Positions 7,789 through 63,140 of a stretch of DNA of 64,000 nucleotides are shown in pieces. The notes under the pieces were generated by a model. The model was not told where the DNA came from. It worked only from the letters and a program-made list of their open reading frames with translations, and did not search any database. Source of the DNA: a virus (Duplodnaviria; Caudoviricetes). The stretch lies in IMG/VR virus record IMGVR_UViG_3300027776_000009; one strand, given 5' to 3'. The translations under genes were made by a program, and so were the position numbers. How positions within the stretch are numbered: position 1 is the stretch's first letter; each line of letters begins with the position of its first letter.

Positions 7789-9630
7789 TTAACGACGTCC
7801 CCAGGTGTCACGACGTCCGCTGACGGAGCTGGTATCGCGCTGGCGGCCGGTGTACAGGCTACCGAGGCGACGAGAATCCACGGCGTAATCTGCCATAGCG
7901 CCGGCACGACGACGACCAGAAGTGGCCATGTCTTGCGGCATGTCCGTCCAGGTGATGGCGTGCTCAGTGCGCTGGAAGGCTTCCTCCAGACCGACGATCA
8001 GGGCTTCGTCGAAGGTGTAGCGACGAGCGTAACCCTTGAAGACGATGTCCGGACGAACAGCCAGTTGCAGCTCTTCACGACGCGCCACGCGCAGTGCCAG
8101 ATCCGAGTTGGTCGACCAGGTCGCATCGAAATCTTCGACAGCCGCCATATCGTCGGCGCCGCAGATGTTCAGGAACGCCAGATAATTCAGGCGACGGATG
8201 TCGACGCGCTGACCTTCGCGATTGGTCATATAGCCCAGGCTGATACGCTCGAAGCGCTCACGGATCAGCGGACCCCCGTTGTAGCACTCGCTGAACGCGC
8301 CATCGGTCAGGAAGTCTGCGGCGTCAATGATGACTTGTTCAGCCTTCGTGTTCCGCTTGGCGGCGGCTTCGAAGACACCGGTCAGCATGGACAGCGGACC
8401 AATTTCATCGATATCGATCGAGAAGATCGGATCGCGGCGGATGGCAAACTCCACCATGTCGGAGAAATCCTTCATGGAGAAGCTGTTGGACGTGAAGTCC
8501 GGAACCCGCTTGGGAACATCGTCGTTGTTGGTCAAGCCCGGGCAATCGAAACCGATCGCTGAGAGATCGCGCAGGTTGTCCTGCGCGGCCACACGAGGAC
8601 GATACGCCATCGGCCAGACGTTACCCTTGGCCAAGGCCACCATGCCGTGAATACCCAACAGGATCATGCCAACAGACGGCATGCCCAGACGGGTTTCCAC
8701 ATTGGTCATGATGATTTCCGGAGTCTCGCACTGAGTCTCTTGGATTTCACCACGTCCTGCGGGGCGAGCCGGTTCGTAGATCAGGTTCATCATGGTGTCA
8801 ACCAGGACGATATCACGCTGACCTGTGACACCCATGCCGCGCTGACCATCGTTGGGAGAGGCACCCGAGATCAGAACACTGATGTCGGAAGCAATCGGGA
8901 GGCCGGCAGGGGTTTCGGGTTGCGACGGGGAGATGTTGAAGCGGCCCAGCAAACGATCGTTGGTTTGCAGTTCGCGCACCGAGAACATTTCCTGCGGTTG
9001 ACCAGCCACGCGATCGGCCACGGCTTTGATGGCGATAGCGGCGAAATACATCAGGACCTTGATCTGCTCCTTGTCGTCCGGGGACATTTCGCGACTGATG
9101 ATGTTTTGACCGGCTTCGTACACGTTACTGACCAAGTGCTGGCCGGCGGTGATGTCGTGCACGCGATTCCAATACCAGTCGTCGTACACATCGCTGGTCA
9201 CCAGACGGATCTCGACGCTGCGGCCGTTGATGGTTTCGGTACGCGGGAGCAGTTCGCCGTCGATGGAGTTTTCCACCAGCAGCGTGTGGACCACGGCGCT
9301 GTTGCTGCCGTCCTTTTCAGTGGTCTCGGCAGAAACCAAGATGGCCGAGCAGGCGGCACCGCTGGAGTTCTTGTCCAGCACTGTGAAGCGGTACTGCCCA
9401 ACTTTGTCGCCACAGGCTTCCTTGAGGGCGGTCACGATCTTGGTGATGCCTTCGCCGGCACCGCGGCGATCAAAGGGGGTCGCCATGCGTTCGGACAGGC
9501 CGGTGAATCCGCCGGGAGCGCGACGCGATTCGCTGGGGTTGTCTTGACGGCCGGCGCTGTTGTCCAGATCTTCGGTTTGGGTTTGCGGTGCAGCAGCGCG
9601 ACTGCCGCGATTTCCACGAGTGGCACTCAT
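7789..9630 (-). CDS. chmA: Chimallin, major phage-nucleus shell protein
   Basis: About 613 aa with a disordered N-terminus, immediately upstream of the gp55-like beta-prime gene. Has strong codon bias, its own promoter-like motif and a terminator. Start at 9630 after GGAGAG. Confidence 0.82.
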   Translation of the reverse strand: MSATRGNRGSRAAAPQTQTEDLDNSAGRQDNPSESRRAPGGFTGLSERMATPFDRRGAGEGITKIVTALKEACGDKVGQYRFTVLDKNSSGAACSAILVSAETTEKDGSNSAVVHTLLVENSIDGELLPRTETINGRSVEIRLVTSDVYDDWYWNRVHDITAGQHLVSNVYEAGQNIISREMSPDDKEQIKVLMYFAAIAIKAVADRVAGQPQEMFSVRELQTNDRLLGRFNISPSQPETPAGLPIASDISVLISGASPNDGQRGMGVTGQRDIVLVDTMMNLIYEPARPAGRGEIQETQCETPEIIMTNVETRLGMPSVGMILLGIHGMVALAKGNVWPMAYRPRVAAQDNLRDLSAIGFDCPGLTNNDDVPKRVPDFTSNSFSMKDFSDMVEFAIRRDPIFSIDIDEIGPLSMLTGVFEAAAKRNTKAEQVIIDAADFLTDGAFSECYNGGPLIRERFERISLGYMTNREGQRVDIRRLNYLAFLNICGADDMAAVEDFDATWSTNSDLALRVARREELQLAVRPDIVFKGYARRYTFDEALIVGLEEAFQRTEHAITWTDMPQDMATSGRRRAGAMADYAVDSRRLGSLYTGRQRDTSSVSGRRDTWGRR

Positions 9631-9669
9631 GTTTTTCTCTCCGGTTATGAATGATGACACGTCATGATC

Positions 9670-9690
9670 ATGTCACTAAAATAGTGTGTA
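9670..9690 (-). promoter_or_regulatory. Promoter-like motif upstream of chimallin
   Basis: ATGTCACTAAAATAGTGTGTA, an exact 21-nt match to 45615-45635; member of the recurrent TACAYAYYAY class. Confidence 0.6.
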
Positions 9691-9818
9691 TGTTTTTCCA
9701 TTTGGAATAGGTTTACACATACACCCAAGGTTGCGCCAGATAAATCCGGCGGAGCACTGGCTCTACATAATGTAGTATTGCTGTCATTTTTAACAGCAAG
9801 ACTCTTATGGTGCCAGAA

Positions 9819-14560: not shown

Positions 14561-14863
14561 TCAGTCAATGTGAATGACAACGGTGCCTAGGGTGTCCACC
14601 ATCCGGAACCGGATAGGGGTGTGTGGGTTGACGGCGCGGGTTAGCACACGCCGTGCTCGCTGAACGAGATAGATGAGACTTTCCCCAACAACGCCTCGGA
14701 GATCACTATTGTCACCACCGGCCAGCAGCAGCAATTCATTAACAATCTCTAGACAGGTCAGTGTAATCCGAATATCGGTTGGAGGAGTTTCTGGGGAATG
14801 CTCATACCGGACAGCATCCAGCAGCTCGATCAGTGTTTCAGATTCGAGGATAATTATTGTCAT
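14561..14863 (-). CDS. Small hypothetical protein, tandem-array member
   Basis: Coupled ORF; start MTIIIL. Confidence 0.55.
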   Translation of the reverse strand: MTIIILESETLIELLDAVRYEHSPETPPTDIRITLTCLEIVNELLLLAGGDNSDLRGVVGESLIYLVQRARRVLTRAVNPHTPIRFRMVDTLGTVVIHID

Positions 14864-15251
14864 CTTGCATGAGCTCCAATATGCTGACGCTCTGTTTGGG
14901 TGATTCAATCCGAGCCATCATAATGTCATCACCAGATAGTCGCTCAAAGCGGTAGTCTAATCGGGTTTCACCAGGCCAGCGATACAAACGGTACTCATGA
15001 AATAGTTCATGGAGCTGTGCCGTGAGTTCTTCCAACCCCACCAAGAAGATGGTTGTAGCGTCTGTATCCCCCAAGTAATTCCGGATGCGATCCAGATCAA
15101 TTCGCGAGGGTGGGCTGGTGCGACACGCAGTGCATGCAACTCCCACATAGTGTTCGAACGATTCGCCGTCAAGATTGTCCAGACTGGTATACAGTTGGTA
15201 GAAACGCTGTATCAATTCCTCGGTTGGGAGGAGATGCGTTACACGACTCAT
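14838..15251 (-). CDS. Small hypothetical protein, tandem-array member
   Basis: GGAG RBS; overlaps its neighbours. Confidence 0.6.
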   Translation of the reverse strand: MSRVTHLLPTEELIQRFYQLYTSLDNLDGESFEHYVGVACTACRTSPPSRIDLDRIRNYLGDTDATTIFLVGLEELTAQLHELFHEYRLYRWPGETRLDYRFERLSGDDIMMARIESPKQSVSILELMQDDNNYPRI

Positions 15252-15624
15252 GGTGGTCTCCATCTACATCATGAAGGGTTACAATGAACGTGTCATCGTA
15301 GAAACCCGATACATTGTAATTAAACTCTGAGTGACCCGAGAGGCTTCGTCGATGCATGGGATCGATCGTTATTGCACGTATCAGTTCATCGACGATGCGG
15401 TACATTTCAGACATCACCTCACAGTCATGATTCTTCGCGGCGTAGGAAATACGCTCACAGAGTAGCTCTTCAACCGCTAAGATATCTGACTCGGGATCCA
15501 GCTTGCGCTTAAACGCGCAGTCTAAGAGTTCCTCAAACTCCAAGTCATTTAGCCGGAGGTTGAGGAAGTTCCCTATTCGACGATGGAGCCAGGCTGGAAT
15601 ATCAATAGAAACAAGCAGGCGCAT
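15169..15624 (-). CDS. Small hypothetical protein, tandem-array member
   Basis: Start MRLLVSID after GGAGAG. Confidence 0.6.
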   Translation of the reverse strand: MRLLVSIDIPAWLHRRIGNFLNLRLNDLEFEELLDCAFKRKLDPESDILAVEELLCERISYAAKNHDCEVMSEMYRIVDELIRAITIDPMHRRSLSGHSEFNYNVSGFYDDTFIVTLHDVDGDHHESCNASPPNRGIDTAFLPTVYQSGQS

Positions 15625-16018
15625 GACTTCTCTCCACGAAGAAACAGACACTGTCTTCATCCAGACTGATGAAACTGTACGCCCAGCGCGGTAACTCTCC
15701 GCTAGGTACCAGATAATCTGTGAAATGATCGGTGAGGCGTACAATAGCCAGTTCTACCTCGTTCCAGAACCAGTTCTGGATACCGCCGACATCCTCCTCC
15801 ATGATCTGATGATCCTCCAAAATCCGGTACGGACCGGCGTGGAACTCAAGTGACAGCATATTGATCAGTTCCTCACTTTCGTAGGAACTGATCAAGGCGT
15901 TTCGGAGAGCTCTAGAGATGAAGACAACAATGTCGTGGGCTTCACCATGAACGTTTAGCAACTCCATGGTCTGGCTAAACCACGATCGATGGTACGGAAG
16001 TGGGAAGTAAACGTACAT
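15602..16018 (-). CDS. Small hypothetical protein, tandem-array member
   Basis: AGGAGG RBS. Confidence 0.6.
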   Translation of the reverse strand: MYVYFPLPYHRSWFSQTMELLNVHGEAHDIVVFISRALRNALISSYESEELINMLSLEFHAGPYRILEDHQIMEEDVGGIQNWFWNEVELAIVRLTDHFTDYLVPSGELPRWAYSFISLDEDSVCFFVERSHAPACFY

Positions 16019-16027
16019 AGCAGCCTC

Positions 16028-16480
16028 CTAAAAAGGTAGGTAATCGTACGTGATAAAGAGTATCAGATCTTCATCCGGAGTGGTATCGATGTCCATCACA
16101 TTGATAGACAGATAGGGGATCTTTATCGTCCCCTCAATCTGATGGAGTTTATCAATCACGGTGTAGAGCTCGTCCTCAAAAGCATCATAGCCAACGGTCA
16201 GTAAACTGATCCATGTATCCATGGCTTCTTCTTCGGATACACTCAGGTTGACCTTCTTGAGGAGCGTGGTAAGCGTTTCTCGGTTGATAGACATGGCGAT
16301 GTCTTCCGGGGTAAGGGCTCGATTTTGCAAATACCCCCGGTTAACTAGCAACATGAGTTCTTCGAAGAAAGCCCTTTCCCCGTGCAGTGTTTCCAGAAAT
16401 CGAATGCCATGGTTTCCCGTGATTCGAAAAAACTTCTCGGCCGATAGATACACGCGAGTGCGTTTACCCTCATTACTCAT
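16028..16480 (-). CDS. Small hypothetical protein, tandem-array member
   Basis: Start MSNEGK after GGAGAG. Confidence 0.6.
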   Translation of the reverse strand: MSNEGKRTRVYLSAEKFFRITGNHGIRFLETLHGERAFFEELMLLVNRGYLQNRALTPEDIAMSINRETLTTLLKKVNLSVSEEEAMDTWISLLTVGYDAFEDELYTVIDKLHQIEGTIKIPYLSINVMDIDTTPDEDLILFITYDYLPF

Positions 16481-16841
16481 GTTTCTCTCCCGTGGAGATG
16501 GGGTATATTTCGATGCGCAACGTTTCACGCGATACAGAAAGCTTCACTGTGGAGGGGTGTTCAGCAATGCGCTCCGCATAGGGTTTCAAGACCGCGTCCA
16601 GTGGAAAGAGAGCGTGACAGATAACAGACCTGGCTCGATCAGGCGCCACTCCCCATGACTGAATCAGTTCTTGTTCTAAGAGCGCCAGTCCGCCTGGTGT
16701 TGTTCCTAATACATATTCCGTGACACGCACCACAATTTCGTGAGCCTCATGACCGCTCCAGGTATTGACGGTGTACCCCAACACGGTCTTGATAGGGTTG
16801 ATCAAGTCATCAATAGCAAGACGCGCAATACAAGGTTTCAT
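16473..16841 (-). CDS. Small hypothetical protein, tandem-array member
   Basis: GAGG RBS; overlaps the next gene. Confidence 0.6.
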   Translation of the reverse strand: MKPCIARLAIDDLINPIKTVLGYTVNTWSGHEAHEIVVRVTEYVLGTTPGGLALLEQELIQSWGVAPDRARSVICHALFPLDAVLKPYAERIAEHPSTVKLSVSRETLRIEIYPISTGEKHE

Positions 16842-16850
16842 GATAAACCT

Positions 16851-17384
16851 CTAGTCGGTAAACCCATCAGTAACTTGGGTGAGGGGGTCGCAGAAGGACT
16901 GAATCACGACAGGGTGCCCGTTAACGGAACGACACTGCCAACCGCTTGGTAGTATCCGCTGTTCTTCTTTGAGTTGTTCGTATTGCAGGATTCGCCAGTC
17001 ATCGATTTTCTCAACCACGACGGTATCATCCTTGAGACTATTAACCGCAACCACATCCCAAGTTTTATTGGGGTATATGGAGTGCGTAGCCAGTCGGACT
17101 TGGCCAAAGACGCGATCCATGACTAATGACCAGTAGCTGTCGGATAACGTATCCATAGCGGCTGGGTGATACCACGGCATCATCGCTTCCGCAACCTTGT
17201 TATAGGAGTGACCTATGGGTGCCCACTGAAGGCGTTCGCTCACGGCGTCATCCAATAGACACCGAATCAATTCCAAAGCCTGTTCCGGTTTGAGGGTCTC
17301 AGTGAGCTGGTGGCGTTGACAAAACGTGAGGGTGGCGTTGACAATCCACTGGACTTCTTCTTGGAACGAAAACATGACGATCAT
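16851..17384 (-). CDS. Hypothetical protein, tandem-array member
   Basis: ATGA overlap with the upstream gene. Confidence 0.6.
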   Translation of the reverse strand: MIVMFSFQEEVQWIVNATLTFCQRHQLTETLKPEQALELIRCLLDDAVSERLQWAPIGHSYNKVAEAMMPWYHPAAMDTLSDSYWSLVMDRVFGQVRLATHSIYPNKTWDVVAVNSLKDDTVVVEKIDDWRILQYEQLKEEQRILPSGWQCRSVNGHPVVIQSFCDPLTQVTDGFTD

Positions 17385-17716
17385 GGATGACTCCCTCTGC
17401 CTAATACTATCCGGTAGTCCCCACCACAGTGCTTCACGTCCTTGAGTGAGAGGTCGGCCGTGTTGTAATGGCTATACATGGACAGCTCTTGGTATGTACG
17501 GACAACGCGTTCAAGTTGTCGATAGAAAAATGGGTTGACCTGAGCGTGGTGCGTATGCTGGCTGATCTCTTTCCAGAACCGGGGTTCTACGGGTAGTATG
17601 AACACGCGGTGACACGCGAGCCCTAGGTGAGCCAAGGTGGCACACGTCGGTATGTCGTTCTGTTCAAAGAGGGGTTCGAGTTCGAGACCGTCCATGAGTA
17701 GGACAAGATCGCGCAT
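17381..17716 (-). CDS. Small hypothetical protein, first of the tandem array
   Basis: GAGGA RBS; promoter-like motifs at 17741-17810. Confidence 0.6.
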   Translation of the reverse strand: MRDLVLLMDGLELEPLFEQNDIPTCATLAHLGLACHRVFILPVEPRFWKEISQHTHHAQVNPFFYRQLERVVRTYQELSMYSHYNTADLSLKDVKHCGGDYRIVLGRGSHP

Positions 17717-20780: not shown

Positions 20781-21275
20781 TTATCGTTTGTTATACCGAC
20801 TGATACGGATAACTCCATGATTGGGATCATCCAAACACTCGACGGTTTCACGATCCCAGCCTTCTCCAGTAAACGTTGGGAAGAACGCGTCCCCATCTTT
20901 CACGATCTCCGGGACATGGGTCATGTACACTGTATCAGCAAACGGAAGCGCTTCCTTGTAGATCTCCCCACCTCCGATGATAAACACCGTGCCATCAGCA
21001 GGCAGATGGGGTTCGGCTTCCAGCAGGGCTTGTGTCAGCGTTGTGACGTAGCAGTAACCTGCGCCAGGCTCGCGCGGTGTGCGTGAGATAATGATGTTGT
21101 AACGACCGGGTAGAGGTTTGCCGATTGAGTCAAACGTTTTGCGTCCCATGATCACGGGGTGACGGAGCGTGCTTTCTTTGAAGAAACGCAAATCTCCGGG
21201 AATACGCCACGGTAGTTGACCTTGGCGACCAATACAGCCATTCATACTCATGGCAACAATCAGAGCAATGTTCAC
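20781..21275 (-). CDS. folA: Dihydrofolate reductase
   Basis: IG..GQLPW, DL.FFK..T, MGRKT..SI, LPGR.N, IGGGEIY, GDAFFP. Confidence 0.95.
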   Translation of the reverse strand: MNIALIVAMSMNGCIGRQGQLPWRIPGDLRFFKESTLRHPVIMGRKTFDSIGKPLPGRYNIIISRTPREPGAGYCYVTTLTQALLEAEPHLPADGTVFIIGGGEIYKEALPFADTVYMTHVPEIVKDGDAFFPTFTGEGWDRETVECLDDPNHGVIRISRYNKR

Positions 21276-21897: not shown

Positions 21898-23055
21898 TTA
21901 CCACTTAGCGCTGGGGGGGAGTATGTCTTCTTGGGACACACTGGGTTGTTGAGTGCCGGCTATCACTTTATCAATAGCTGACCGCATTTCATCGGTAAAC
22001 GTGAAATGGTAAGCGTTAGGAGCCTCTCCTTTCCAAGTCTTCTTTACCGCGTTGTCCTCAGGATGGTTAATCGCGCCATCTATCGATGATCCAAAGGCTA
22101 ACACGGTGACAGTCTTCGGCGCAAAGCGTAGCCGGTCAGTACCTCGACTATGCCCTATCCAGATGTCGGCTGTTTTTGGCAGCGTATAGGGCTCACCCGG
22201 ATCAAAGGATACTTCGCAACCCGCTGACTCCAGATACCTGCGAATTGACTCATAGAACGCCTTAGCCGTCGGGTTTCCTCGAATATACTTCGGATTCCCT
22301 TGGATGATGACAGCAGTGAGGGTCTTATCCGTGCGGTCTTCTTTACTAGCGGTCAGCTTATCGTAGTGTTTCTGGATAAGCAGTTTGGCAGTATCTAGTT
22401 TCTTTTTGTCTGACGTGGTCAAGTTCTTGCCAGCGCGATTGATGTAAAACTGGAGCCGAGCGATCGCCTGTCGTTTATCCTTAGACGCCTTAATCAATCC
22501 ATTGGCAATACTGCTAGCGGATTTCTTAAAGAAGTCTTCAGGAGGATGCCATTTCTCTTTCTTAGTGACATCGTCGGACCACTTCTTACCTTCCATAGAG
22601 GGAGTTGTTGCCAACTCAATTCCCTTGGTGTTTAAGAAGTCAGCTACCTGAGCAAGGTTATCCAGCACTATAGCTCCGTTACGCTTAAGCATTTCAGCAA
22701 CTGCGTCAAGTGACCGACGTTCCCCCGTTGTCCAAGTTGTGCCCAATTCACTATCGAGCAAAGTGAATAGTGTCTGATTGGGTCTACGGTGACTATCGTC
22801 CACAACCTCAGCAATGGAGTAAACTCCTGTCATGAGCGGTGAGATGACATAGAGAGTATAGTCTGAAGATTCACGGACCTGTCGTTCGATAACTTGGTCT
22901 TCCGGTTTCCAGTCAGGCACGACTGGGTCAAACCACCCAACAGATACGATCAGTTCTTTCTTCAACCGATCCCGCCACTGACTGTTGTTACATGTACCAC
23001 CCAGAAAGACTTTCACCGATGAGGAGCTATAGTCCTCAGAAAACGTACCCGGCAT
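21898..23055 (-). CDS. Multidomain probable virion protein: nucleoside 2-deoxyribosyltransferase-like + DUF3175-like + alpha/beta-hydrolase-like
   Basis: VFLGGTCN.S.WR..L, F.PVV.DW, TGVYSIAE (NDT-like); KKWS.DV...L.FYINRAG.NL (DUF3175-like); IGHSRG. S-x-E sites at the domain borders. Confidence 0.7.
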   Translation of the reverse strand: MPGTFSEDYSSSSVKVFLGGTCNNSQWRDRLKKELIVSVGWFDPVVPDWKPEDQVIERQVRESSDYTLYVISPLMTGVYSIAEVVDDSHRRPNQTLFTLLDSELGTTWTTGERRSLDAVAEMLKRNGAIVLDNLAQVADFLNTKGIELATTPSMEGKKWSDDVTKKEKWHPPEDFFKKSASSIANGLIKASKDKRQAIARLQFYINRAGKNLTTSDKKKLDTAKLLIQKHYDKLTASKEDRTDKTLTAVIIQGNPKYIRGNPTAKAFYESIRRYLESAGCEVSFDPGEPYTLPKTADIWIGHSRGTDRLRFAPKTVTVLAFGSSIDGAINHPEDNAVKKTWKGEAPNAYHFTFTDEMRSAIDKVIAGTQQPSVSQEDILPPSAKW

Positions 23056-23112
23056 GTTACACCTCAGGTAAAGCAAAAAAAAAGAAGGGGATCATAAGAT
23101 CCCCCGTTCTAG

Positions 23113-23628
23113 TCAAAGCCAGTTATAGAGCGGACCATAGTGGCTAACCCAGCGATTGGCCACGGCTTCGTAATGTTTCGGACTCAAGAACTCCTTGAGT
23201 GTTTCGAGGAAAGTTTGAAACACTCCTCCCCCACGGATGTGTATCTCAACCAGGCCGGTAACAGGGTCTACCCCTACGTCATTGATCTCAGACATTGAGA
23301 TACCAGCAATGTGGGAAAGCTCTTCACGAGCCTCGCTGGCAGTGAGATGTTGCTCTTGGCAGAGCGCGTCCCAGAAGCGAGAGACATTCCAGAAACCACG
23401 TGGTGCTACCAACATGTTGGCTGGAAGAAGAGTCCTTTCAAGCAGAGCAATATCGGCATCAGTGAGACGCTCGATATCGAAGCCAAATCCAACACCGTCA
23501 GGCTCAATCCAAAAGGCTTTTGGAAACCGCTTGATCAATGCTGCGCGGAAATGTTCACGATCCATCCCATGGTTAGGGATATTACGAACCACCGAAATAA
23601 CGATGTCATGCTTAGTGTTGTTATCCAT
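23113..23628 (-). CDS. Hypothetical (likely early) protein
   Basis: AGGAGG RBS, promoter motif upstream, terminator downstream. Confidence 0.6.
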   Translation of the reverse strand: MDNNTKHDIVISVVRNIPNHGMDREHFRAALIKRFPKAFWIEPDGVGFGFDIERLTDADIALLERTLLPANMLVAPRGFWNVSRFWDALCQEQHLTASEAREELSHIAGISMSEINDVGVDPVTGLVEIHIRGGGVFQTFLETLKEFLSPKHYEAVANRWVSHYGPLYNWL

Positions 23629-23660
23629 TTTGTCCTCCTACGGACAGTTGATTAGATTCA

Positions 23661-23680
23661 CTTAGGTAGTATGTATCTGA
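23661..23680 (-). promoter_or_regulatory. Phage RNAP early-type promoter motif (representative copy)
   Basis: Minus strand CAGATACATACTACCTAAG. Related copies near 1605, 9680, 17747, 24560, 27625, 31995, 39183, 42030, 45625, 58290 and 60963, all upstream of minus-strand genes. Confidence 0.7.
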
Positions 23681-23713
23681 AAAAAAATGGCTTTAACGGC
23701 ATACAACGCAGGC

Positions 23714-24148
23714 CTAAGCCTGCATCAAGTATCCCAAGGTAAACCGGTAGGTATCATCACTGAGGCGCGTAAACCCCTCTACTGAAACTACGTTCATGGT
23801 GCGCTCAATATCACCAATGATTGCACAGAAGTCTTTCTGGACTTGGTCCCAAATGTTGCCATACCGCAGCTTGAGTTGCAGTACCGTTTCAGCCGCTTGA
23901 ACGATAAAACCGCCCGAGTCCTCATCGGGTTCACTGTAGAGCATCTTGAGATGGTTCAGAAAATCCGCATAGGCTTGTTCGCGTGAACTGCTATCAGGTC
24001 TATCGCATGCTAAGTCCTGAAACAAGGTTCTGACAATGTCGTCCACAGTAGCGCCGTACAGATCACGTTGGGATTCAAATCCTTCAGGGTAGTACAGAGG
24101 ACTATCTGGGATGGGAATCAGGCAGACAGCCGTAACGATTTCTGACAT
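23714..24148 (-). CDS. Hypothetical protein, possible dispersed member of the 14.6-17.7 kb family
   Basis: C-terminal RLSDDTYRFTL hairpin resembles array members. Confidence 0.55.
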   Translation of the reverse strand: MSEIVTAVCLIPIPDSPLYYPEGFESQRDLYGATVDDIVRTLFQDLACDRPDSSSREQAYADFLNHLKMLYSEPDEDSGGFIVQAAETVLQLKLRYGNIWDQVQKDFCAIIGDIERTMNVVSVEGFTRLSDDTYRFTLGYLMQA

Positions 24149-24170
24149 GGTTTCACACCCCAGCTAACGA

Positions 24171-24518
24171 TCAGACGACTTCTTTCCCTTCAACCCCACG
24201 CGCCATCCGGCGTGCGGTGCGGACTTCCAGATTCACCAATGCATTCTTCATGTCCGCAATCGCCCGCTTGTTTTCATCACAGGGGAACTGGGAATCCAGG
24301 TGCTCGGTGCGATGAATCAAAATCGCCAACAGCGCTTCATTGGTAACACCGTTCAGTCCATGAGCGGGAATCGGACCTTGCTGAAAACTGATGGTGGTAC
24401 CCGATTGACCATGCATCACTTTGTAAACATGTCCCGTCATATCGCGACCCGCGGCACGTTCATCGGGACCGGAAAAAGCATTGACCATCAACCCGTTGTG
24501 GTCGGTATAAATACGCAT
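24171..24518 (-). CDS. tad1: Tad1-family anti-Thoeris/anti-CBASS signal sponge
   Basis: H.Y, I.FQ.G, GV....LL.I...R, P..EN..A......AL.....R...R..R.V.G match the Tad1 pattern. Confidence 0.75.
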   Translation of the reverse strand: MRIYTDHNGLMVNAFSGPDERAAGRDMTGHVYKVMHGQSGTTISFQQGPIPAHGLNGVTNEALLAILIHRTEHLDSQFPCDENKRAIADMKNALVNLEVRTARRMARGVEGKEVV

Positions 24519-24578
24519 GTGAAACTCTCCTAAGTGGGGACTCAGATGTCCATACCCATGGTGTATATCTGTAAAATA

Positions 24579-24854
24579 TTATTCTTGGAATAGCGTTTTG
24601 AATTGAATATCGCTCATTACTACCGGTCGATTACTCGATAAGTACACGACCCAGTCCCCCGGATAGACGAACAATGGCTTGGGGGTTCTTTCAATAACGG
24701 CATAAGCGCCGTGTCTCAGTTCCATCTGCTGGCGTTGACTTAAACGCGTTAAACCACGGAGCTGTGCTGGGTGTGTCACAACTCCGGGTAAGGTTATCCC
24801 CGTCTTCCATTGCAAACCTAAGGACTGTCGTGTCGCTTTAGGGTCTACTGACAT
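24579..24854 (-). CDS. Small phage protein with QW...PGDWVV...F..LF pattern (PGDYG-like; possible nucleotide sponge)
   Basis: LQW, VYPGDWVVY, VMSDIQFKTLF. Confidence 0.5.
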   Translation of the reverse strand: MSVDPKATRQSLGLQWKTGITLPGVVTHPAQLRGLTRLSQRQQMELRHGAYAVIERTPKPLFVYPGDWVVYLSSNRPVVMSDIQFKTLFQE

Positions 24855-24876
24855 ACCTCTCTCCTAGAGATAATAC

Positions 24877-25110
24877 TCACGCCATGGCCATGACAATACG
24901 ACCCAAGGGGTCACACATCTTGCGATCAAAACCCGATTCTTCCGGGTGCTCCACCTCTTGCGGATTCCGGTCTTTCACCACCGGCGTAGGAAAACGAATC
25001 ACGACACCCAGAACCCGTTCTGGATCCGTATGCAGTTGCAGATGTTGATCAGGCTGCCGAGGAATAGCGTCCAGCGCTACCACCACCGGCGGGGTACGTT
25101 TGTTGCTCAT
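24877..25110 (-). CDS. Hypothetical protein
   Basis: AGGAG RBS. Confidence 0.5.
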   Translation of the reverse strand: MSNKRTPPVVVALDAIPRQPDQHLQLHTDPERVLGVVIRFPTPVVKDRNPQEVEHPEESGFDRKMCDPLGRIVMAMA

Positions 25111-25245
25111 GGTAACTCCTAAGTACGTGTAAGACGAAATGTCTCATAACTAATACCGTGTGTGTAAAAAATAAGCGCATAACCCCCATATGGCCGAGGG
25201 GGTCTTCGGCCAGAGGTTAGCTCAAAGGGTTATACCGTCATGGAT

Positions 25246-25746
25246 TCAGGGAATCGCGGGTTCCGGCGTCAACGCCGACACGTTCACGGAATCAATCACG
25301 TTGTCCGGCGTGGTATACACCTGACCGCCAGTTTCAGCAAGGGCTTCATGGAGCTCTTTCAGGTCCTGATGTTCCGCATCCGAAAGCGGTTCTTCCCCAC
25401 CCGGCACATCCCCCATCACGAGGATACCCGTAGACTCCGGATTACGCACTGCTTCCGCAGCAGCCGCTACAGCTCCAGCATACCCCGTTACTCGTGGCTG
25501 CACCACAAACAGATTCAACACGGCTTCGGTTTCCCGATGCTGGTCTTCCTGCATGGTTTCAGCACTCACCCGCACTCCCATGGGTTCAACTCGCACCATC
25601 GGCATCACGCCAGCGGTCAGCGTGTCACACAGAGATTCCAGACCCACTCCGTAAACACGTACCAGCCGCAGAGGCTTCGCCCCATGACTGCGCTTTGCGC
25701 TGGCCGGTGCTTGACCAGCCAAGATTTCGTTCAGACTGTGACGCAT
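25246..25746 (-). CDS. Degenerate NDT/TIR-like Rossmann protein, paralog of the N-domain at 21898-23055
   Basis: NLFVVQPRVTG vs TLYVISPLMTG, RNPEST vs RRPNQT, ETGGQV vs RNGAIV. Confidence 0.5.
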   Translation of the reverse strand: MRHSLNEILAGQAPASAKRSHGAKPLRLVRVYGVGLESLCDTLTAGVMPMVRVEPMGVRVSAETMQEDQHRETEAVLNLFVVQPRVTGYAGAVAAAAEAVRNPESTGILVMGDVPGGEEPLSDAEHQDLKELHEALAETGGQVYTTPDNVIDSVNVSALTPEPAIP

Positions 25747-25845
25747 GCTGGATCTCCCAGTTTGGTTTTGGAATCACGAATGACTCGTCGCATAGTATCA
25801 CATCAGCAGTTATTTTTCACTGACGATCCAGAGGTCTTCTTCCAG

Positions 25846-26520
25846 TATGTGCGCGAAACTCTATACCGCGCGCAGGTTCCAACTAGCGTGTGCGCATTCT
25901 GCGCATCCGCGTACTCTATACCGCGTGCGCGCACATCACGCCTGCGCCCGCTTCTTTGTAATACTACTACGTAGTATTACGTATAGTAAATTATTTATTG
26001 TTTTAGATTTATATTTTACTAACGTAAAATATCCCCTAAGTTAAGATTATAAATAATCTAAATTGATCACGAGGGGTCAACGACCCCGAAGTGCATCAAA
26101 ATCGATCTGACCAAGGTTTTTGCTCTGGCAAAAACACAAATCTGAACTCTGCCGCCGGGGTTTGAGCCCCGGCTGGTATTCAGATGGTTCGAATTTCGAT
26201 CAGATTCAGTCTGAAATCGTTAAAAACACGCAGTTTTTCCACCAGGGCAACTGCATGTGACAGCCGTCACCCCCAGAATCTATTCAAACACGGCCAGTGC
26301 CGCTACTTGTTTTGTGAGTACTCTTAGGGCGCGCGCGATCCTTCAGTAGCGCGGGCGTTAAGGAAGGCATGGGTTTCGTAACCCGTTTTCAGCCAAAGAA
26401 AAAACTAACACCCTAAACCTAGTTTGAAAATACCGCTAGGACTTCGTACGAGAAGATTCTAGCGGCATAAAACCCCCCGGGAGTACTAAGGTACTACCCA
26501 GGTATTTGAGGGGTCTTAAA
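25846..26520. other. Long non-coding element with direct repeats, AT-rich core and about 15 consecutive hairpins (origin or large structured RNA)
   Basis: ACTCTATACCGCG x2 (25858, 25913); inverted repeats at 25958-25980, 26011-26032, 26063-26099, 26116-26135, 26140-26185, 26230-26254 and 26433-26465. Confidence 0.6.
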
Positions 26521-26543
26521 ACGGCTCCCAGAGAATCATCAAG

Positions 26544-32020: not shown

Positions 32021-35000
32021 TTAACCACATGCGCCGATAGCACCACAGGAAGTACATTTCTTACAGCCGTCCACCTTGATGACTGCAAACTCGCCACACT
32101 CGCCGCACTTGGCCCCACCCATTACTTGAAGACCCCCTTTGATCTCAGCGTCAGATTGAACGGCATTCTTGATCGCTGCCATGGTGTTGCTGAACATGGT
32201 GAGTGCTTTCATGGACGACATGATCTTCAGATCAACAGTCCGGAAGTTGGTATCCAGAAAACCGCGCTCTTGCAGCATTTCTTGCAATGCGTAAGCCAAG
32301 GCGGCGACTTCCGATTCATGATGGCGGGTACCCTTACTTCCATCCGGCCGATCAATCTGACCATAACGAACCAACCCCTTGTCCCAGACAACTTCACGCA
32401 GATCCGCCAGAGCATCTGCTACCGACGCTCCAGACCTTGAAATCTGAGACAGGAGCCGCATGGTAGCAGCAACCCATTGCTGAGAATCGTCTTGCTGACC
32501 CGCAGGGACAAAGAACTCGATCGGGCGTTCGATCGCGATGGCTTCACCATTGTGAACACCATCTACAACCATGAACGAGACCGAGAGATAGATCTTCTTC
32601 TCGCCTTCCAGCGTGTAGTACACCATTTTGCGAGTAATCGCATTAAGGTCGCCGGCCGGGCGTGATTTGAACTTCACCGTCAGGGGATCCAGATCCTTCA
32701 ACGCACCCACCGGAAATTCGTCTCCCACTTTCGGTTCCTCGGCAACAGACAAGACCGCACCCAGGATGTTGTTGGGGCGATACGTAGCCAAACCTTTCAG
32801 CCCGGCTTTCCAGCCGTTGTAGTACAGGTCCTTGAACTCTTCGTACGGGTAGTCCGCCGGAACATTCACCGTCTTGGAGATGCTGGTGTCGATATAGGGT
32901 TGCACCACTTCCAGCATCCGCATATGGTCGTCAGCCGACATTTCAAGAGCAGTGACGAAGTAGCTCGGCAAATTGTTGACATCCCCACCCAGATGGCGAT
33001 ACAGGCGCCACGCATGGTCTTCAACCGGCAGAATCTTGCTGCTACCATCATCCATTCGCTTCTTGCGATTGTAGGTCCAGCTAAATGCTGGCTCAATACC
33101 ATTGGAGGCGTTGTCGGCGAAGGACAAGGAAATGGTTCCAGTCGGCGCGATCGACAGCAGATGGCTGTTGCGAATACCGTTCGCTCGGATATAGTCGCGG
33201 ATGTGCTCCGGCAGTCGACGTGCGAAGCCGCTATCCAGATACTTGTCGGCATCGAACATCGGGAACACCCCTTTCTCGATAGCCAGCTTCACCGATGCAC
33301 GATAGGCCTCATCACGCATGATTCGAGAGACCTGTTCAGCGAAGTGGAGGCCTTCCGGAGAGTTGTACTTGATTCTCATCATGACCAGAGCATCGCCAAG
33401 ACCGGTGAACCCCAGACCAATCCGGCGTTTGGAGTCAGACTGTTCCTTCTGCTGTTCCAACGGCCAGTAGGTAAGATCGAGCACGTTGTCAAGCATACGT
33501 ACACCAAGCCCAACAACCTCAATGAACTTCTCGGTGTCAAACGTTGCGCGTTCCGTGAAGGGGTCGATGATTAACTTCGTCAGATTGATGGAACCCAAAT
33601 CACAGCAACCATAATTCGGCAACGGTTGTTCCGCACACTGTCCAGTTACCAACCCATTAAAAATGACCGTATTATTGTCGGCCTGAGTGGTATCATAAAC
33701 TGCCTCTACCCCGATATACTCGATGCTGGTGATAGCGGCCGTAAAGGACTGCGTCTTATACAGTTTCTTCCCGTCCATCCAGGCAAGAAGTTTATCGTTC
33801 ATCTCGGGAAGCAGAAAACCGATATGTTGAGCGAATGCATTTCGCGACTCACCATCAACAATCAGTTCATAGCTATCCTTGCAAGGATAGCTGGCGTACC
33901 CTCCGCGCCCATCCGGCAGTTCACGGAAACCGGCAACCCGCGCGAGTCTTATCGTGGAGAAAACCCCGAAGTTAGCCAGCAACATCTGGATCTCACCCAG
34001 ATAGTCCTCGGAGATAGAGGAGAGACGGATGGAACAGGTATTGCTACCTTGATTGACGAGGATGGTTCCGTCCGTTTGAAACAGGCCGTGCAGATAGCCC
34101 CGAACACAGCTCTCAGACCCCTTCCAAACTACTTCAGGTACAACCAGTTTTGTCCGTGCGTTGAAACCGAAATCCCGATCAAGAACACTGGCAAGCACCA
34201 CCGAACGAATGGACTCCATGTCACGACCTTCGATGGAAACGCTTTCAACACGTCGGTAACGCGGTTCATCGCGAATCAAACGGTTGACAGCGGCAACGCA
34301 TTCTGAAGCCACTGCACGATTCTCGCCCCAAAGCCCGACGCAGGCGGCAACTCCATTACCCCGAGCGGTGAAGTGACCATCGCCCGCAATCAGTCCCATC
34401 AGCATCCCGAGTTCGTAACTTCCCTCTGTCCCGAACTGACCAAGCCCGCTTTGCACCAACAAAACGTCATCAAGCGTCAGATCGCGCAGTTTAACCTTAC
34501 CCCGGGTGGTGTAGAAATCGTGCCACTCCGTGGCCTTGATCGTATATCCGGCCTGTGTCGTAATTTGGTAAACATCGGCAAGTTCGGCGGTCATGAACAC
34601 CGGCACTGCCGGGCGGATATCAACACCACGGGGTGCAGTTCCAAGCGCACGCTTGTCGACGGTTACTTGGAGGGTCTCTTGAGACCGATAGAGCTCGTCC
34701 ATCCGAACCAAACCATATTGGGTAGCCAAGCGCGTATCGCCGGTCACGCACGGGTTGGTGGCCTCAATGTCTTCGCAATAGTACAGGTTGTTTTCCTGAT
34801 TCATGCGGTCGACGTAGAGGATACCGGGCTCGGCATGGTCATAGGTCGATTGCATGACCTGATCCCAAAGGGCACGCGCTTTGACCGTTCGATAAACCCA
34901 CATACCGTCTTCACGTTGGAAAGCACCGAGTTCAGCAATGACCTCAGGGTGCGGTTCAGCAACGTGAACCAGTTGGAAGTCGGCATCTTTTTCGACAGCT

Positions 35001-35614
35001 TCCATGAAAGCATCAGTCACGGCAATCGAGATGTTGAAGTTCTTCAGATCACCCGTATCCTTGGCATGAATGAACTCTTCGATGTCCGGATGATCACAGT
35101 TGAGTACACCCATCTGGGCACCACGGCGCGCCCCTGCTGACTCAACGGTCTCACAGGTCTTGTCAAAGACGCGCATGAAACTGACGGGTCCCGAAGAGCG
35201 AGAGTTAGTGGCCGAAACAAAGCCACCGCAGGGTCGCAAATGCGAAAAGTTGTAACCGACCCCGCCGCCGCGACGCAGGGTTTCGGCTGCTTCCTCCAGT
35301 GCTTTCATGATACTCGGGCGCCCGTCCTTTGCCATTCCGCGCATGGCGTCACCGATTGGTTGGACGAAGCAGTTGATCAATGTGGCTTGGATATTCGTAC
35401 CGGCTGCCGAAGAGATACGACCGGCAGGAATGAAGCCACTATCCAGAGCGTAGTAGAAGCGCTCTTCGTAGTCCTCGCGAACATTTTCGTTCTCGACAGA
35501 GGCCAGCGCTTTGGCTACACGCCGCCGATTCTGATCCAGTGTAACTTCGCCATTTTTGGCGTACTTCTCGATGAAAACTTCGATGCTGACTTCCTGGAGC
35601 TGCAGTTGGTTCAT
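32021..35614 (-). CDS. nrdJ: Class II (adenosylcobalamin-dependent) ribonucleotide reductase with intein
   Basis: PAGR, NCFV, GGGVG, RRGAQM, EPG, NP|intein|CAEQ, APTGTIS, SKT.N, C-terminal TSCPD-like domain and Zn ribbon. Confidence 0.93.
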   Translation of the reverse strand: MNQLQLQEVSIEVFIEKYAKNGEVTLDQNRRRVAKALASVENENVREDYEERFYYALDSGFIPAGRISSAAGTNIQATLINCFVQPIGDAMRGMAKDGRPSIMKALEEAAETLRRGGGVGYNFSHLRPCGGFVSATNSRSSGPVSFMRVFDKTCETVESAGARRGAQMGVLNCDHPDIEEFIHAKDTGDLKNFNISIAVTDAFMEAVEKDADFQLVHVAEPHPEVIAELGAFQREDGMWVYRTVKARALWDQVMQSTYDHAEPGILYVDRMNQENNLYYCEDIEATNPCVTGDTRLATQYGLVRMDELYRSQETLQVTVDKRALGTAPRGVDIRPAVPVFMTAELADVYQITTQAGYTIKATEWHDFYTTRGKVKLRDLTLDDVLLVQSGLGQFGTEGSYELGMLMGLIAGDGHFTARGNGVAACVGLWGENRAVASECVAAVNRLIRDEPRYRRVESVSIEGRDMESIRSVVLASVLDRDFGFNARTKLVVPEVVWKGSESCVRGYLHGLFQTDGTILVNQGSNTCSIRLSSISEDYLGEIQMLLANFGVFSTIRLARVAGFRELPDGRGGYASYPCKDSYELIVDGESRNAFAQHIGFLLPEMNDKLLAWMDGKKLYKTQSFTAAITSIEYIGVEAVYDTTQADNNTVIFNGLVTGQCAEQPLPNYGCCDLGSINLTKLIIDPFTERATFDTEKFIEVVGLGVRMLDNVLDLTYWPLEQQKEQSDSKRRIGLGFTGLGDALVMMRIKYNSPEGLHFAEQVSRIMRDEAYRASVKLAIEKGVFPMFDADKYLDSGFARRLPEHIRDYIRANGIRNSHLLSIAPTGTISLSFADNASNGIEPAFSWTYNRKKRMDDGSSKILPVEDHAWRLYRHLGGDVNNLPSYFVTALEMSADDHMRMLEVVQPYIDTSISKTVNVPADYPYEEFKDLYYNGWKAGLKGLATYRPNNILGAVLSVAEEPKVGDEFPVGALKDLDPLTVKFKSRPAGDLNAITRKMVYYTLEGEKKIYLSVSFMVVDGVHNGEAIAIERPIEFFVPAGQQDDSQQWVAATMRLLSQISRSGASVADALADLREVVWDKGLVRYGQIDRPDGSKGTRHHESEVAALAYALQEMLQERGFLDTNFRTVDLKIMSSMKALTMFSNTMAAIKNAVQSDAEIKGGLQVMGGAKCGECGEFAVIKVDGCKKCTSCGAIGACG
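33638..34750 (-). mobile_element. Intein (371 aa) with LAGLIDADG homing endonuclease, inserted at the RNR catalytic NPC motif
   Basis: Begins CVTGDT; block B ATEWHDF; LMGLIAGDG and LHGLFQTDG; ends VYD...NGLVTGQ then extein Cys. Confidence 0.92.
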
Positions 35615-36816: not shown

Positions 36817-37917
36817 TCAAGTAGCAACAGCGATCTTGATTGCCGGGTGAGGATCGTAACCCTCAATACCGTCACAGATGCGCTGAATGATTTCAGATTT
36901 GTCCTCGATGTACGGATTCATGATATCCGACAGATTCACCAAGGCATCCAGGCGGAACTTGGGCATGGGGCGAATGTCGCGCATCATCATGATATCCACC
37001 TCAGCCATCTGGTTGGAGTAGATGTGTGCATCACCAGTACTGATGATCAATTCACCCGGCAGGTAACCACATTCCATCGCCAACAAATGTGTCAACAACG
37101 CGTAGCTGGCGATATTGAAGGGTGCACCCACGGGGACATCCCAACTCCGCTGATACAGATGCAGATCCAGGTAACGGCTGCACACGCCCAGCTTGTCCAG
37201 CAGCTCGTGCGTCGCCGCATGGTCCGTGCTGGCATCTATTCCCAAGCGCATTCCGATACTAGCCAGGTGGGTGTTGTAGTACTCCAACCGTTCTTCAAGC
37301 GTCATGTCACGGACGTAGCACTGCCAAAATGGGTGGCAGGGTGCAAGCGACATCCGACCCTCCAGAACGTTCTGTTGCGGTGATTTGGATTCATCCGGCA
37401 GATCGGTAACGCTCCACGCAGAGACAATGTGCCGCCGCGAATACGGATTGTGTTTCAGGCTATTAACCAACCCACGTATTTGATCAACACGCTCTCTTCC
37501 GACCTGTCCATCGGAAAGATCCGCAACACCGCACCAGTTGCGCCACTGACCGCCGTAAATGGGACCCAGAGAACCGATTCGCCTTGTGTCAATAGCATTA
37601 ACCCCATCGATTGTTACCGGGTTAGCCTGTGCGAATTCTTCAGTAAGGACCCACTGGTCCCAGATCCCGCGTTGATCTTTGTTCACACTAGAAAGCAACC
37701 GCAGGCGGTTGTTACATGTGCTTCCTTCCAGAAACCAAATCAATTCTGCAACAACTGCCCGCCACGGGGTGCGCTTCAGCGTGACGAGCGGAAAACCTTC
37801 CTGTAGATTGAAGGTAAGTTGGCGACCAAACACAGACAGAGTACCGGTACCGGTGCGATCCCCACGACGACGGCCATTGGTCAAAATATCGCGAAGCAGG
37901 TTCTTGTACTGTTGCAT
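36817..37917 (-). CDS. thyA: Thymidylate synthase
   Basis: DRTGTGT, GPIYG.QWR, LAPCH, YQRS.D..G.PFN, DAHIY; has insertions. Confidence 0.96.
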   Translation of the reverse strand: MQQYKNLLRDILTNGRRRGDRTGTGTLSVFGRQLTFNLQEGFPLVTLKRTPWRAVVAELIWFLEGSTCNNRLRLLSSVNKDQRGIWDQWVLTEEFAQANPVTIDGVNAIDTRRIGSLGPIYGGQWRNWCGVADLSDGQVGRERVDQIRGLVNSLKHNPYSRRHIVSAWSVTDLPDESKSPQQNVLEGRMSLAPCHPFWQCYVRDMTLEERLEYYNTHLASIGMRLGIDASTDHAATHELLDKLGVCSRYLDLHLYQRSWDVPVGAPFNIASYALLTHLLAMECGYLPGELIISTGDAHIYSNQMAEVDIMMMRDIRPMPKFRLDALVNLSDIMNPYIEDKSEIIQRICDGIEGYDPHPAIKIAVAT

Positions 37918-58232: not shown

Positions 58233-58366
58233 TTTCTTTGCCCTCCTTCGGGCGTGGTTAGTGTGAGAGATATTCTCACTTCTCTACCTAAGTGATATGT
58301 ATCTGAAAAAAACTGCATTTAGAGACAAAAAAGAAAAGGGATTGCTCCCTTTCCTTACTACGTTGC

Positions 58367-60930: not shown

Positions 60931-61019
60931 GAACGTTTCTCCACGTCGTTGATATTCACATCAGTAGTGTGTATGTAAAAAATAATGAAGGCATACGAGG
61001 AGGCCTAAGCCTCCTCGTT

Positions 61020-62241: not shown

Positions 62242-62754
62242 CTACTCTCCTTCGGGAACAAGTTCCCAAGTCTTTGAAAGCATAACGCAATGGGTCGGAA
62301 TCCATCCGTAGTGAAAATTCCCATCCTTCGTATAGTACACGAAGGTGTTTTGCACGCTTTCATGACGCCTGCGTTTGGCCGCCAAACGCCGAACTTCAGA
62401 GAACGGATGATCATCCGGAAACAAAACCGCACCCTTAACCAACATGACCCAGGTACCCTTGTCCCGCCATTCATGCATACGGACACGCTTACCGCGCTCA
62501 AGCATAAGTATAGCCCACGCAAAGGTGCCCTCAATGAGTTTCAACAACCCATCCATTGTTTCGGGATGGGTATGCAGTTCCGACTTTGTTTCCAAAACAT
62601 ACCCACGCGGGTCACTGGCTATCGCAGCGCTGGTTCTTTCAATTCCCGTCCACGGATTGTATCGCCATACAGCGTTCAGGAACTTATTCCGATAAATATC
62701 CGGCTCGCACCCAAACGCCACCCCCGTTTTTGGATCATACAGCATCGGTTTCAT
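62242..62754 (-). CDS. Tad2/DUF2829-domain protein fused to a WRYNPWTG module
   Basis: TF.WA...L..G.RV....W..KG.W and W.P....L...W match the Tad2/DUF2829 pattern. Confidence 0.7.
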   Translation of the reverse strand: MKPMLYDPKTGVAFGCEPDIYRNKFLNAVWRYNPWTGIERTSAAIASDPRGYVLETKSELHTHPETMDGLLKLIEGTFAWAILMLERGKRVRMHEWRDKGTWVMLVKGAVLFPDDHPFSEVRRLAAKRRRHESVQNTFVYYTKDGNFHYGWIPTHCVMLSKTWELVPEGE

Positions 62755-62765
62755 GAGAGTTCCCC

Positions 62766-63140
62766 CTACCAGCGATCGCATTCGCAATCTTTACGTGTCT
62801 TTCCGCATTCCATACACGATGAGGAGGTTTGTACCAACACCCCCAGATGCTTAGAATGCCCCTGTACCTTAACCTTTCGCTGTTTGAACCATGTGGTCAA
62901 TTTGTCATGAATCCACATGGAGCCTACGATTCCGATCACTCCTCCAGTAACGGTGTACGGTAAAACCACCCACCCCTTTTGAACCGCAAAGAGCACCACA
63001 GTGATATCAGCAACACACATCGCAGCGGATGTGACCGCTGCTGATATGTAGTGATTGCCGTGAACATTCTTCTGCTGAAACCCTCTCAGAAACACCATGG
63101 AAAAGGTAGCAACGCCCGCTAGTAATAATGAGTTCATCAA
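62766..63140 (-). CDS. Small membrane protein
   Basis: Three hydrophobic segments, VFL..FQQ.NV, C-terminal Cys cluster. Confidence 0.6.
   Translation of the reverse strand: MMNSLLLAGVATFSMVFLRGFQQKNVHGNHYISAAVTSAAMCVADITVVLFAVQKGWVVLPYTVTGGVIGIVGSMWIHDKLTTWFKQRKVKVQGHSKHLGVLVQTSSSCMECGKTRKDCECDRW

Follow-up and report, generated by a model that had tools for sequence, protein, structure and literature searches.

The IMG/VR virus record IMGVR_UViG_3300027776_000009 supplied the window analyzed here, a stretch of 64,000 nucleotides that is part of a 75-kb contig, about 28% complete, from a divergent nucleus-forming jumbo phage. Our subject is the segment between positions 21898 and 25746 of this window, in which seven open reading frames (ORFs), named A to G, all lie on the minus strand and include a homolog of Tad1, a sponge protein for nucleotide immune signals, together with a predicted enzyme of three modules. 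A first-pass annotation had read the segment as an island that neutralizes nucleotide immune signals and carries new candidate sponges. The seven genes are as follows.

21898-23055, minus strand: A, a single ORF for a 385-amino-acid (aa) three-module protein (NDT-like domain, DUF3175 and a GHSRG hydrolase-like domain)
23113-23628, minus strand: B, a 171-aa orphan
23714-24148, minus strand: C, a 144-aa acidic orphan
24171-24518, minus strand: D, a 115-aa Tad1-family sponge
24579-24854, minus strand: E, a 91-aa basic orphan with a YPGDW motif, directly upstream of tad1
24877-25110, minus strand: F, a 77-aa orphan
25246-25746, minus strand: G, a 166-aa divergent NDT-like paralog without the conserved Glu

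Nucleus-forming phages are shielded from defenses that target DNA but not from abortive systems that act through signals, and it is to the latter exposure that genes countering such signals would owe a decisive influence on host range. The assignment of this phage to the nucleus formers, already made in the first-pass annotation, is borne out by a chimallin (nuclear-shell protein) gene at 7789-9660 (phrog_4795, E 1e-64), whose product is only ~25-27% identical to the chimallins of cultured phages. The phage also encodes the beta subunit of a multisubunit RNA polymerase, a phiKZ-type DNA polymerase, a terminase, a tail sheath and an internal head protein. Near-identical DNA was found in metagenomes of wastewater and activated sludge from 13 studies (2017-2025), and a search of phage records returned none.

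Contigs from three other runs, which belong to three different studies, show the block in the same gene order. Among the 35 listed strain differences that fall inside the ORFs, 26 are synonymous and 9 non-synonymous, and 25 occupy third codon positions, including all three of those listed in F and two of the three in C; relatives of E, G and B that are 65-99% identical and equal in length are present in other metagenomes. Because the strain differences are mostly synonymous or at third positions and such relatives have been kept, all seven ORFs are real genes under purifying selection, including the small genes of obscure function (B, C and F) that had been noticed at the outset. Contigs from RNA libraries (X12 and X17) span the block and are uninformative on transcription, since DNA can occur in RNA libraries. 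Searches of the window with BLASTP and phmmer returned no paralogs of the orphans B, C, E and F, and the idea that C belongs to an array of small ORFs at 14561-17716 found no support in them. Upstream of G, some 800 nucleotides (25747-26543) are devoid of ORFs.

The Tad1 homolog had been recognized from the start, and it is the 115-aa frame D and not the 144-aa ORF. As a single sequence, D matches CmTad1 (PDB 8kbb) at E 3.3e-11 and phiKZ gp184 (8y6v_I) at E 1.8e-6; its match to phrog_2428 is at E 5e-31. When D is combined with ten IMG/VR relatives into a profile, the search finds CmTad1 (8kbb) at 2.8e-23, CbTad1 (7uav) at 2.6e-21 and phiKZ gp184 at 1.8e-15. A tblastn search with D gives matches in 191 phage records, among them the protein annotated as Tad1 in Bacillus phage SPG24, and the best full-length match from a cultured phage is that of Shewanella phage Thanatos, at ~47% identity. 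Judged by these matches, D is a genuine member of the Tad1 family.

The pocket of D can be compared residue by residue with that of CbTad1, in which glyco-cyclic ADP-ribose (gcADPR) is contacted by H29, G55, R57, R78, F82, F87, N92, R109, R113, G120 and N122 (Leavitt et al., bioRxiv 10.1101/2022.05.03.490397). Eight of these eleven contacts are identical in D (H29=H30, G55=G48, R78=R70, F87=F78, N92=N83, R109=R100, R113=R104 and G120=G111), and three have changed (R57→I, as in CmTad1; F82→L; N122→E); the C-terminal lid segment is present with its glycine. CbTad1 also has three residues, R90, T97 and W105, that bind cyclic trinucleotides and hold the hexamer together (Li et al., PMC10680739), and all three are replaced in D (R90→D81, T97→A88, W105→N96). 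Loss of the R and the T is common to the nearest relatives of D (L002 and L004) and absent from more distant ones; the trinucleotide site and hexamer interface are a trait of some Tad1 members and not of the family as a whole. D is accordingly a protein for which we predict, from its residues, a retained gcADPR/dinucleotide pocket without a trinucleotide site, and no binding of cA3 or cAAG because the trinucleotide and hexamer residues are lost.

Two further observations concern Tad1 itself. A strain from a wastewater run (X12) that is otherwise ~95% identical carries at 24353-24455 a 101-nucleotide block of equal length that is too diverged to align; it covers residues ~22-55 of tad1, in the beta-sheet half, and its divergence suggests local diversification or recombination. 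Tad1-like domains also occur as C-terminal fusions, in one case to a cyclophilin PPIase (E 2.5e-44) in gp131 of Burkholderia phage FLC9 (L012, 15654-16670) and in another to a WDGH domain (E 1.4e-23) on an IMG/VR contig (L004, 65-976).

Among the neighbors of tad1 the most informative gene is A, a predicted enzyme and not a sponge, which consists of three modules.

22627-23037, minus strand: module 1, an NDT-like domain (PF15891-type) with a GGT loop and a SIAE Glu, assigned by homology and fold
22357-22584, minus strand: module 2, a DUF3175 helical domain (Pfam PF11373, E 3.4e-8, 34 bits against a cut-off of 27)
21961-22329, minus strand: module 3, a GHSRG domain of ~120 aa (phrog_30942) with GNP, GHSRGxDRL, NHPxD and HY motifs, a predicted minimal alpha/beta hydrolase

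The NDT/TIR-like domain that had been proposed in this region is module 1, at the N-terminus of A. It is 50% identical to the 'NDT-like domain protein' of phiCD418 (E 1e-32) and belongs to a family with a tightly conserved consensus, VFLGGTCN.S.WR ... YVITP.MTGVYSIAEVVDDSNKRP, in which a motif of the S[IV]AE type is kept in ~89 of 95 domains, and the conserved Glu is present in A. The model of A by AlphaFold2 (AF2) has a mean predicted local distance difference test (pLDDT) score of 82.5; residues 145-170 of the model form a disordered linker. The fold of the first module is closest to 4mcj (Z 11.6; root-mean-square deviation 2.9 over 124 residues) and YtoQ (8of6, Z 11.3), followed by several NDTs, RCL and MilB (Z 8-10) and by TIR domains (Z 8-9). 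A profile of the NDT-like family gave no significant match to PDB sequences. In other proteins, module 1 is joined to NUDIX, DHH/DHHA1 and GIY-YIG domains or, in bacteria, to three TIR domains and WD40, and in Erwinia jumbo phage pEa_SNUABM_54 a protein of 805 aa begins with it; the DUF3175 of module 2 has a gene of its own in jumbo phages of Erwinia and Xanthomonas.

Module 3 is matched by no Pfam model. Its consensus is AVIIxGNP ... W(I/V)GHSRGxDRLRFAP ... NHPxD ... HY; the GHSRG nucleophile-elbow motif is found in 57 of the 58 family members, and the Ser, the Asp of NHPxD and the His of HY are conserved in that order across the family. In the model the elbow stands at a junction between a strand (298-302) and a helix (303-311), and the fold matches include 2qjw (Z 8.3), 5cml (Z 8.2) and cutinases (Z 7.8-8.1). 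These Z scores, like those of module 1, come from a wider structure search than the Foldseek search with the whole three-domain model, which gave weak rows (5cml at probability 0.98 but E 0.04). On the model, module 3 is predicted to be a small alpha/beta-hydrolase-like domain. It stands alone in PhiPA3 gp373, 201phi2-1 gp429 and FLC9 gp115, and in larger proteins it joins an Acb1-like 2H domain with GNAT, 2H-SAK, SNF2 helicases, SET and DUF5661; we also noticed a GHSRG module inserted at residues 567-694 of a fused RNA polymerase beta/beta' protein of 2123 aa (P0090).

The modules of A occur independently among its homologs. An exhaustive HMMER search found 1886 relatives of A, of which a single one (P0012, 75% identical) is a full-length ortholog; in the best 150 of the 1886, 92 have module 1 alone, 58 have module 3 alone, and P0012 alone has both modules 1 and 3. 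No loci related to A were found in IMG/VR. Because its modules are joined elsewhere to Acb1-like 2H, 2H-SAK, NUDIX, DHH/DHHA1, SNF2 and GNAT domains, a role of A in counter-defense or nucleotide processing is plausible.

The degenerate NDT-like paralog that had been proposed is also present, as G. Its similarity to A in a pairwise BLAST comparison is marginal (E 0.003), but hhalign aligns it with the NDT-like family at 90.4% probability (E 1.4e-6) over 113 collinear columns, as against 5.5% or less in nine controls that included reversed profiles and five unrelated profile pairs. In G, Ala94 aligns with the conserved Glu, and the GGT loop has degenerated. On this alignment G is a diverged NDT-like paralog, and it is probably inactive.

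The four orphans (171, 144, 91 and 77 aa) are, as far as sequence searches reach, restricted to the lineage. B, C, E and F have no match in Pfam, NCBIfam or PDB and none to a PHROG with a function, and a tblastn search of 50,697 phage records with the proteins of 91, 144, 166, 171 and 175 aa returned no match. B has one homolog cluster (87% identity) and no match in Pfam, PHROG or NCBIfam. The Atlas model of C is poor (pLDDT 0.41), and an Atlas search with it gave no usable match. E, the 91-aa PGDW protein correctly placed next to tad1 in the first-pass annotation, has five homolog clusters (65-97% identity, all of 91 aa) and an isoelectric point (pI) of 10.1; no related loci were found in IMG/VR or JGI metagenome contigs, and Pfam gave no match of E to PGDYG (PF14083) at E values up to 0.1. 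The only lead for E in the Atlas, which stays below the threshold (feature score 0.83, TM score 0.48), points to PGDYG and DUF1642 phage proteins, whose function is unknown. Its AF2 model is weak (pLDDT 61), so that a Foldseek search of the PDB with nothing below E 0.89 is uninformative, and a homodimer prediction with a score of 0.02 is evidence neither way.

Several signals bear on the transcription of the block and on the start of A.

23086-23105, minus strand: a hairpin followed by T8, resembling an intrinsic terminator, between B (the 171-aa gene) and A
23669-23684, minus strand: a promoter-like motif (T-run + TCAGATACATAC), ~50 nucleotides upstream of B
24561-24576, minus strand: a promoter-like motif (TTTTACAGATATACAC), 54 nucleotides upstream of tad1

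The real start of A is the ATG at 23055, which stands behind a GAGGT ribosome-binding site, because the listed TTG start at 23076 falls in the T-run of the terminator and P0012 begins at the equivalent of this ATG. Terminator-like hairpins lie on both sides of A, which is therefore a transcription unit of its own. A motif of a T-run followed by a ACAGATAYAYAC-like sequence has six copies in the window where 0.29 would be expected, which suggests a candidate class of phage promoters. Further copies of the form T-run + ACA(G)ATAYAYAC, 45-55 nucleotides before start codons, lie at 2407-2422, 58295-58310 and 60967-60982 (minus strand), and a similar core is found upstream of chimallin, near 9680-9700. 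A scan for promoters of the sigma-70 type gave chance level, as expected of a phage with its own RNA polymerases.

Taken together, the stretch appears to be a block of accessory genes, co-directional and specific to their lineage, in a wastewater chimallivirus, with one Tad1 sponge, one mini-polyvalent enzyme, one pseudoenzyme paralog and four orphans, a reading to which we give a probability of about 60%. From homology, folds, motifs and the reality of the genes, all of which are demonstrated, we infer every activity and any role in immunity besides that of Tad1. By homology, D would sequester gcADPR made by TIR proteins and so keep effectors of the Thoeris type off; its pocket may also take up cyclic dinucleotides. 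Behind its terminator, A would be separately transcribed and would act as a 385-aa 'mini-polyvalent' enzyme, whose module 1, with the Glu nucleophile kept, is predicted to be an N-glycosidase or transferase acting on a nucleoside or nucleotide, and whose module 3, previously unnamed, is predicted to be a Ser-Asp-His hydrolase-like domain. A may thus process a host nucleotide or a molecule derived from one, most likely for counter-defense, and the Glu-less G would be a pseudoenzyme, possibly a binder or a partner.

Five observations weigh against this account. Module 1 scores 27 bits with PF15891 (Nuc_deoxyri_tr2), below the cut-off of 30, as compared to 30.8 for the ortholog P0012 and 35-61 (up to 60.9) for other members of the family. 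The hydrolase fold of module 3 (Z ~8) is tied with PBP-like (Rossmann-like) folds (Z 8.2-8.5). The Tad1 homologs on 10 other viral contigs have none of A, B, C, E, F and G beside them; the one partial co-occurrence is in Burkholderia phage FLC9, where the cyclophilin-Tad1 fusion gp131 and the module 3 protein gp115 are 9 kb apart among hypothetical genes. A Tad2-like protein of 181 aa, with a C-terminal PF11195 match (37.6 bits against a cut-off of 25), is encoded 38 kb away at 62242-62787 on the minus strand, and the block is therefore not a dedicated single island; on this match the phage carries both Tad1- and Tad2-type sponge genes, at separate loci. Finally, a DHFR gene (20781-21275) lies two genes downstream of A. 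Beside the Tad2-like gene, we noted that the N-terminal part of its product has a motif, VWRYNPWTG..R.S..I..DP.G, in common with the C-terminal part of a neighboring 264-aa ORF (63147-63941, minus strand), and this may be a repeated unknown domain.

The position of DHFR makes plain nucleotide metabolism a live alternative for A, if an unlikely one. A, with G, would then serve the phage as, for example, a (d)NMP N-glycosidase like DNPH1 or MilB, or as a deoxyribosyl transferase, for salvage or base modification, and would merely adjoin tad1. The closest folds of module 1 are indeed those of NDTs, RCL/DNPH1 and MilB, and genes for ThyA (36817-37917) and RNR (32021-35614) are in the same window, but these two lie 10-15 kb from A, ThyX is absent, and A, set between terminators, is not co-transcribed with DHFR. 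The fusion partners of its modules (Acb1-like 2H, 2H-SAK, SNF2, GNAT, TIR-WD40, NUDIX and DHH) are moreover typical of conflict proteins and not of biosynthetic operons. The ThyA frame (minus strand) is itself of some note, in that its 378 aa compare with 266 positions of the family model (E 5.5e-80) and it may hold an insertion.

In the proposal of the first-pass annotation, the whole block would be an island directed against nucleotide immune signals, with B, C, E, F, the dead paralog G, or some of these, as new families of sponges. Part of this proposal has stood, in that D is a genuine sponge gene and a role for A in counter-defense or nucleotide processing is plausible; the claim that the small neighbors are sponges or other undescribed inhibitors has found no support, without being refuted, and we consider the wider proposal quite improbable. 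Anti-defense genes often cluster, and Acb4 was found in a putative anti-defense island (review, PMC13728456); the ORFs here are small, lineage-restricted and conserved, E is basic, a promoter-like motif is common to B and tad1, and G has a nucleotide-binding fold without the catalytic Glu. Sponges have been described as small homo-oligomers with positively charged pockets between protomers (Tal et al., 10.1101/2025.07.12.664507), and the ORFs of the block are small enough (77-171 aa), while the models of E and C are too weak for pockets to be judged. The orphans, however, show no resemblance to Tad1, to Tad2 (PF11195), to Sequestin (PF21825, in the copy of Pfam that was scanned) or to any solved structure, they share no linkage to Tad1 in other phages, and C and G, with pI values of 4.2 and 4.8, are acidic, where the pockets described for sponges carry positive charge; most small genes of jumbo phages have unknown and unrelated roles. 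A connection of the four orphans with signal neutralization is unsupported, nothing having been found that ties them to it. Searches of the contig for Acb1 (PF23474) and PF13876 gave no match, and since none was obtained in control genomes either, they are uninformative.

It is very unlikely that A is a head-packaged polyprotein that the prohead protease would cut between the modules, at S/A/G-x-E sites, and that would be injected along with the DNA in the manner of phiKZ gp184/Tad1. In favor of this idea, SME (160-162) and SKE (244-246) fall in the two linkers of A, packaging, processing and injection are known for phiKZ Tad1, a gene for an internal head protein is found 2 kb away, and polyvalent proteins are often virion cargo (PMC5512222). 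Against it, the five [SAG]xE motifs of A in 392 residues are near the chance number (an estimated ~5-6), A lacks an N-terminal propeptide (the NDT fold begins at about residue 7 of the ATG form), and it has no similarity to the MSNKLFYRLGLE head leader and, in Pfam, no link to MuF or portal proteins.

If we return to the reading of the stretch as an accessory block with one sponge and one predicted enzyme, what is new is the unusual Tad1 variant, the fusion of NDT-like, DUF3175 and GHSRG modules, and the GHSRG domain, for which Pfam has no match. As a natural variant that has kept the gcADPR pocket and lost the trinucleotide and hexamer residues, D offers a clean test of how the specificity of sponges evolves. 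The GHSRG domain of ~120 aa is widespread, being present in PhiPA3 gp373, in 201phi2-1 gp429 and in many large phage proteins beside Acb1-like, SNF2 and GNAT domains, and it deserves biochemical study. An NDT-like protein with the Glu (A) and one without it (G), predicted to be active and inactive respectively, flank the sponge gene at a distance of 2 kb from each other. The boldest form of the idea, which we regard as a long shot, is that A is the first phage enzyme to disarm nucleotide immunity by an N-glycosidic cut, either of the signal or of the nucleotide substrate of the effector, with the aid of a new serine-hydrolase domain, and that G, and perhaps E, represent a new class of sponges or decoys that poison the assemblies of host NDT or TIR effectors. 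If the enzyme reading is true, a new chemistry is added to phage counter-defense; if it is false, the stretch is an ordinary accessory region with one known gene.

Compared with characterized systems, D is nearest to Tad1 (CbTad1, PDB 7UAV/7UAW; CmTad1, 8KBB; SBSphiJ7 Tad1), with which it shares the C-terminal two-helix half, the beta-sheet His, the 8/11 contacts and the lid glycine, and from which it differs by D81, A88 and N96 at the trinucleotide and hexamer sites, by a Leu in place of the adenine-stacking Phe and by its length of only 115 aa. Tad1 was already known in chimalliviruses from phiKZ gp184 (chain I of PDB 8Y6V), a minor capsid protein from which the head protease frees a C-terminal part that is injected. 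Like D, gp184 brings a Tad1 domain to a nucleus-forming jumbo phage, but its 230 aa include protease sites and, at the N-terminus, a capsid-wedging part, whereas D stands alone; because D lacks that capsid part, it is presumably made after infection. Module 1 of A shares with the NDT, DNPH1 (RCL) and MilB N-glycosidases and with the NDT-like effectors of retrons a flavodoxin-like NDT fold (Z 8-11.6) and a Glu that ends the central strand-helix motif, and it is set apart from the solved NDTs by its separate, PF15891-type family, with no match to them at the sequence level. In having at least two unrelated effector modules in one chain, and modules that are reused in large SNF2-, 2H- and GNAT-containing proteins, A resembles the polyvalent proteins that Iyer, Burroughs, Anand, de Souza and Aravind (2017, PMC5512222) described from phages and conjugative elements. 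It differs from them in having just three modules, none of which Pfam recognizes as a MuF, portal or peptidase module, and their paper names neither the NDT-like module nor DUF3175 nor the GHSRG module. Lastly, A would resemble phage enzymes of the Acb1 and Apyc1 type, as an enzyme and not a sponge, if it attacks immune nucleotides, and module 3 is fused to an Acb1-like domain in one relative (P0135); A has other folds and another predicted chemistry, N-glycosidic or acyl/ester cleavage, in place of the 2H or MBL phosphodiesterase activity of those enzymes.

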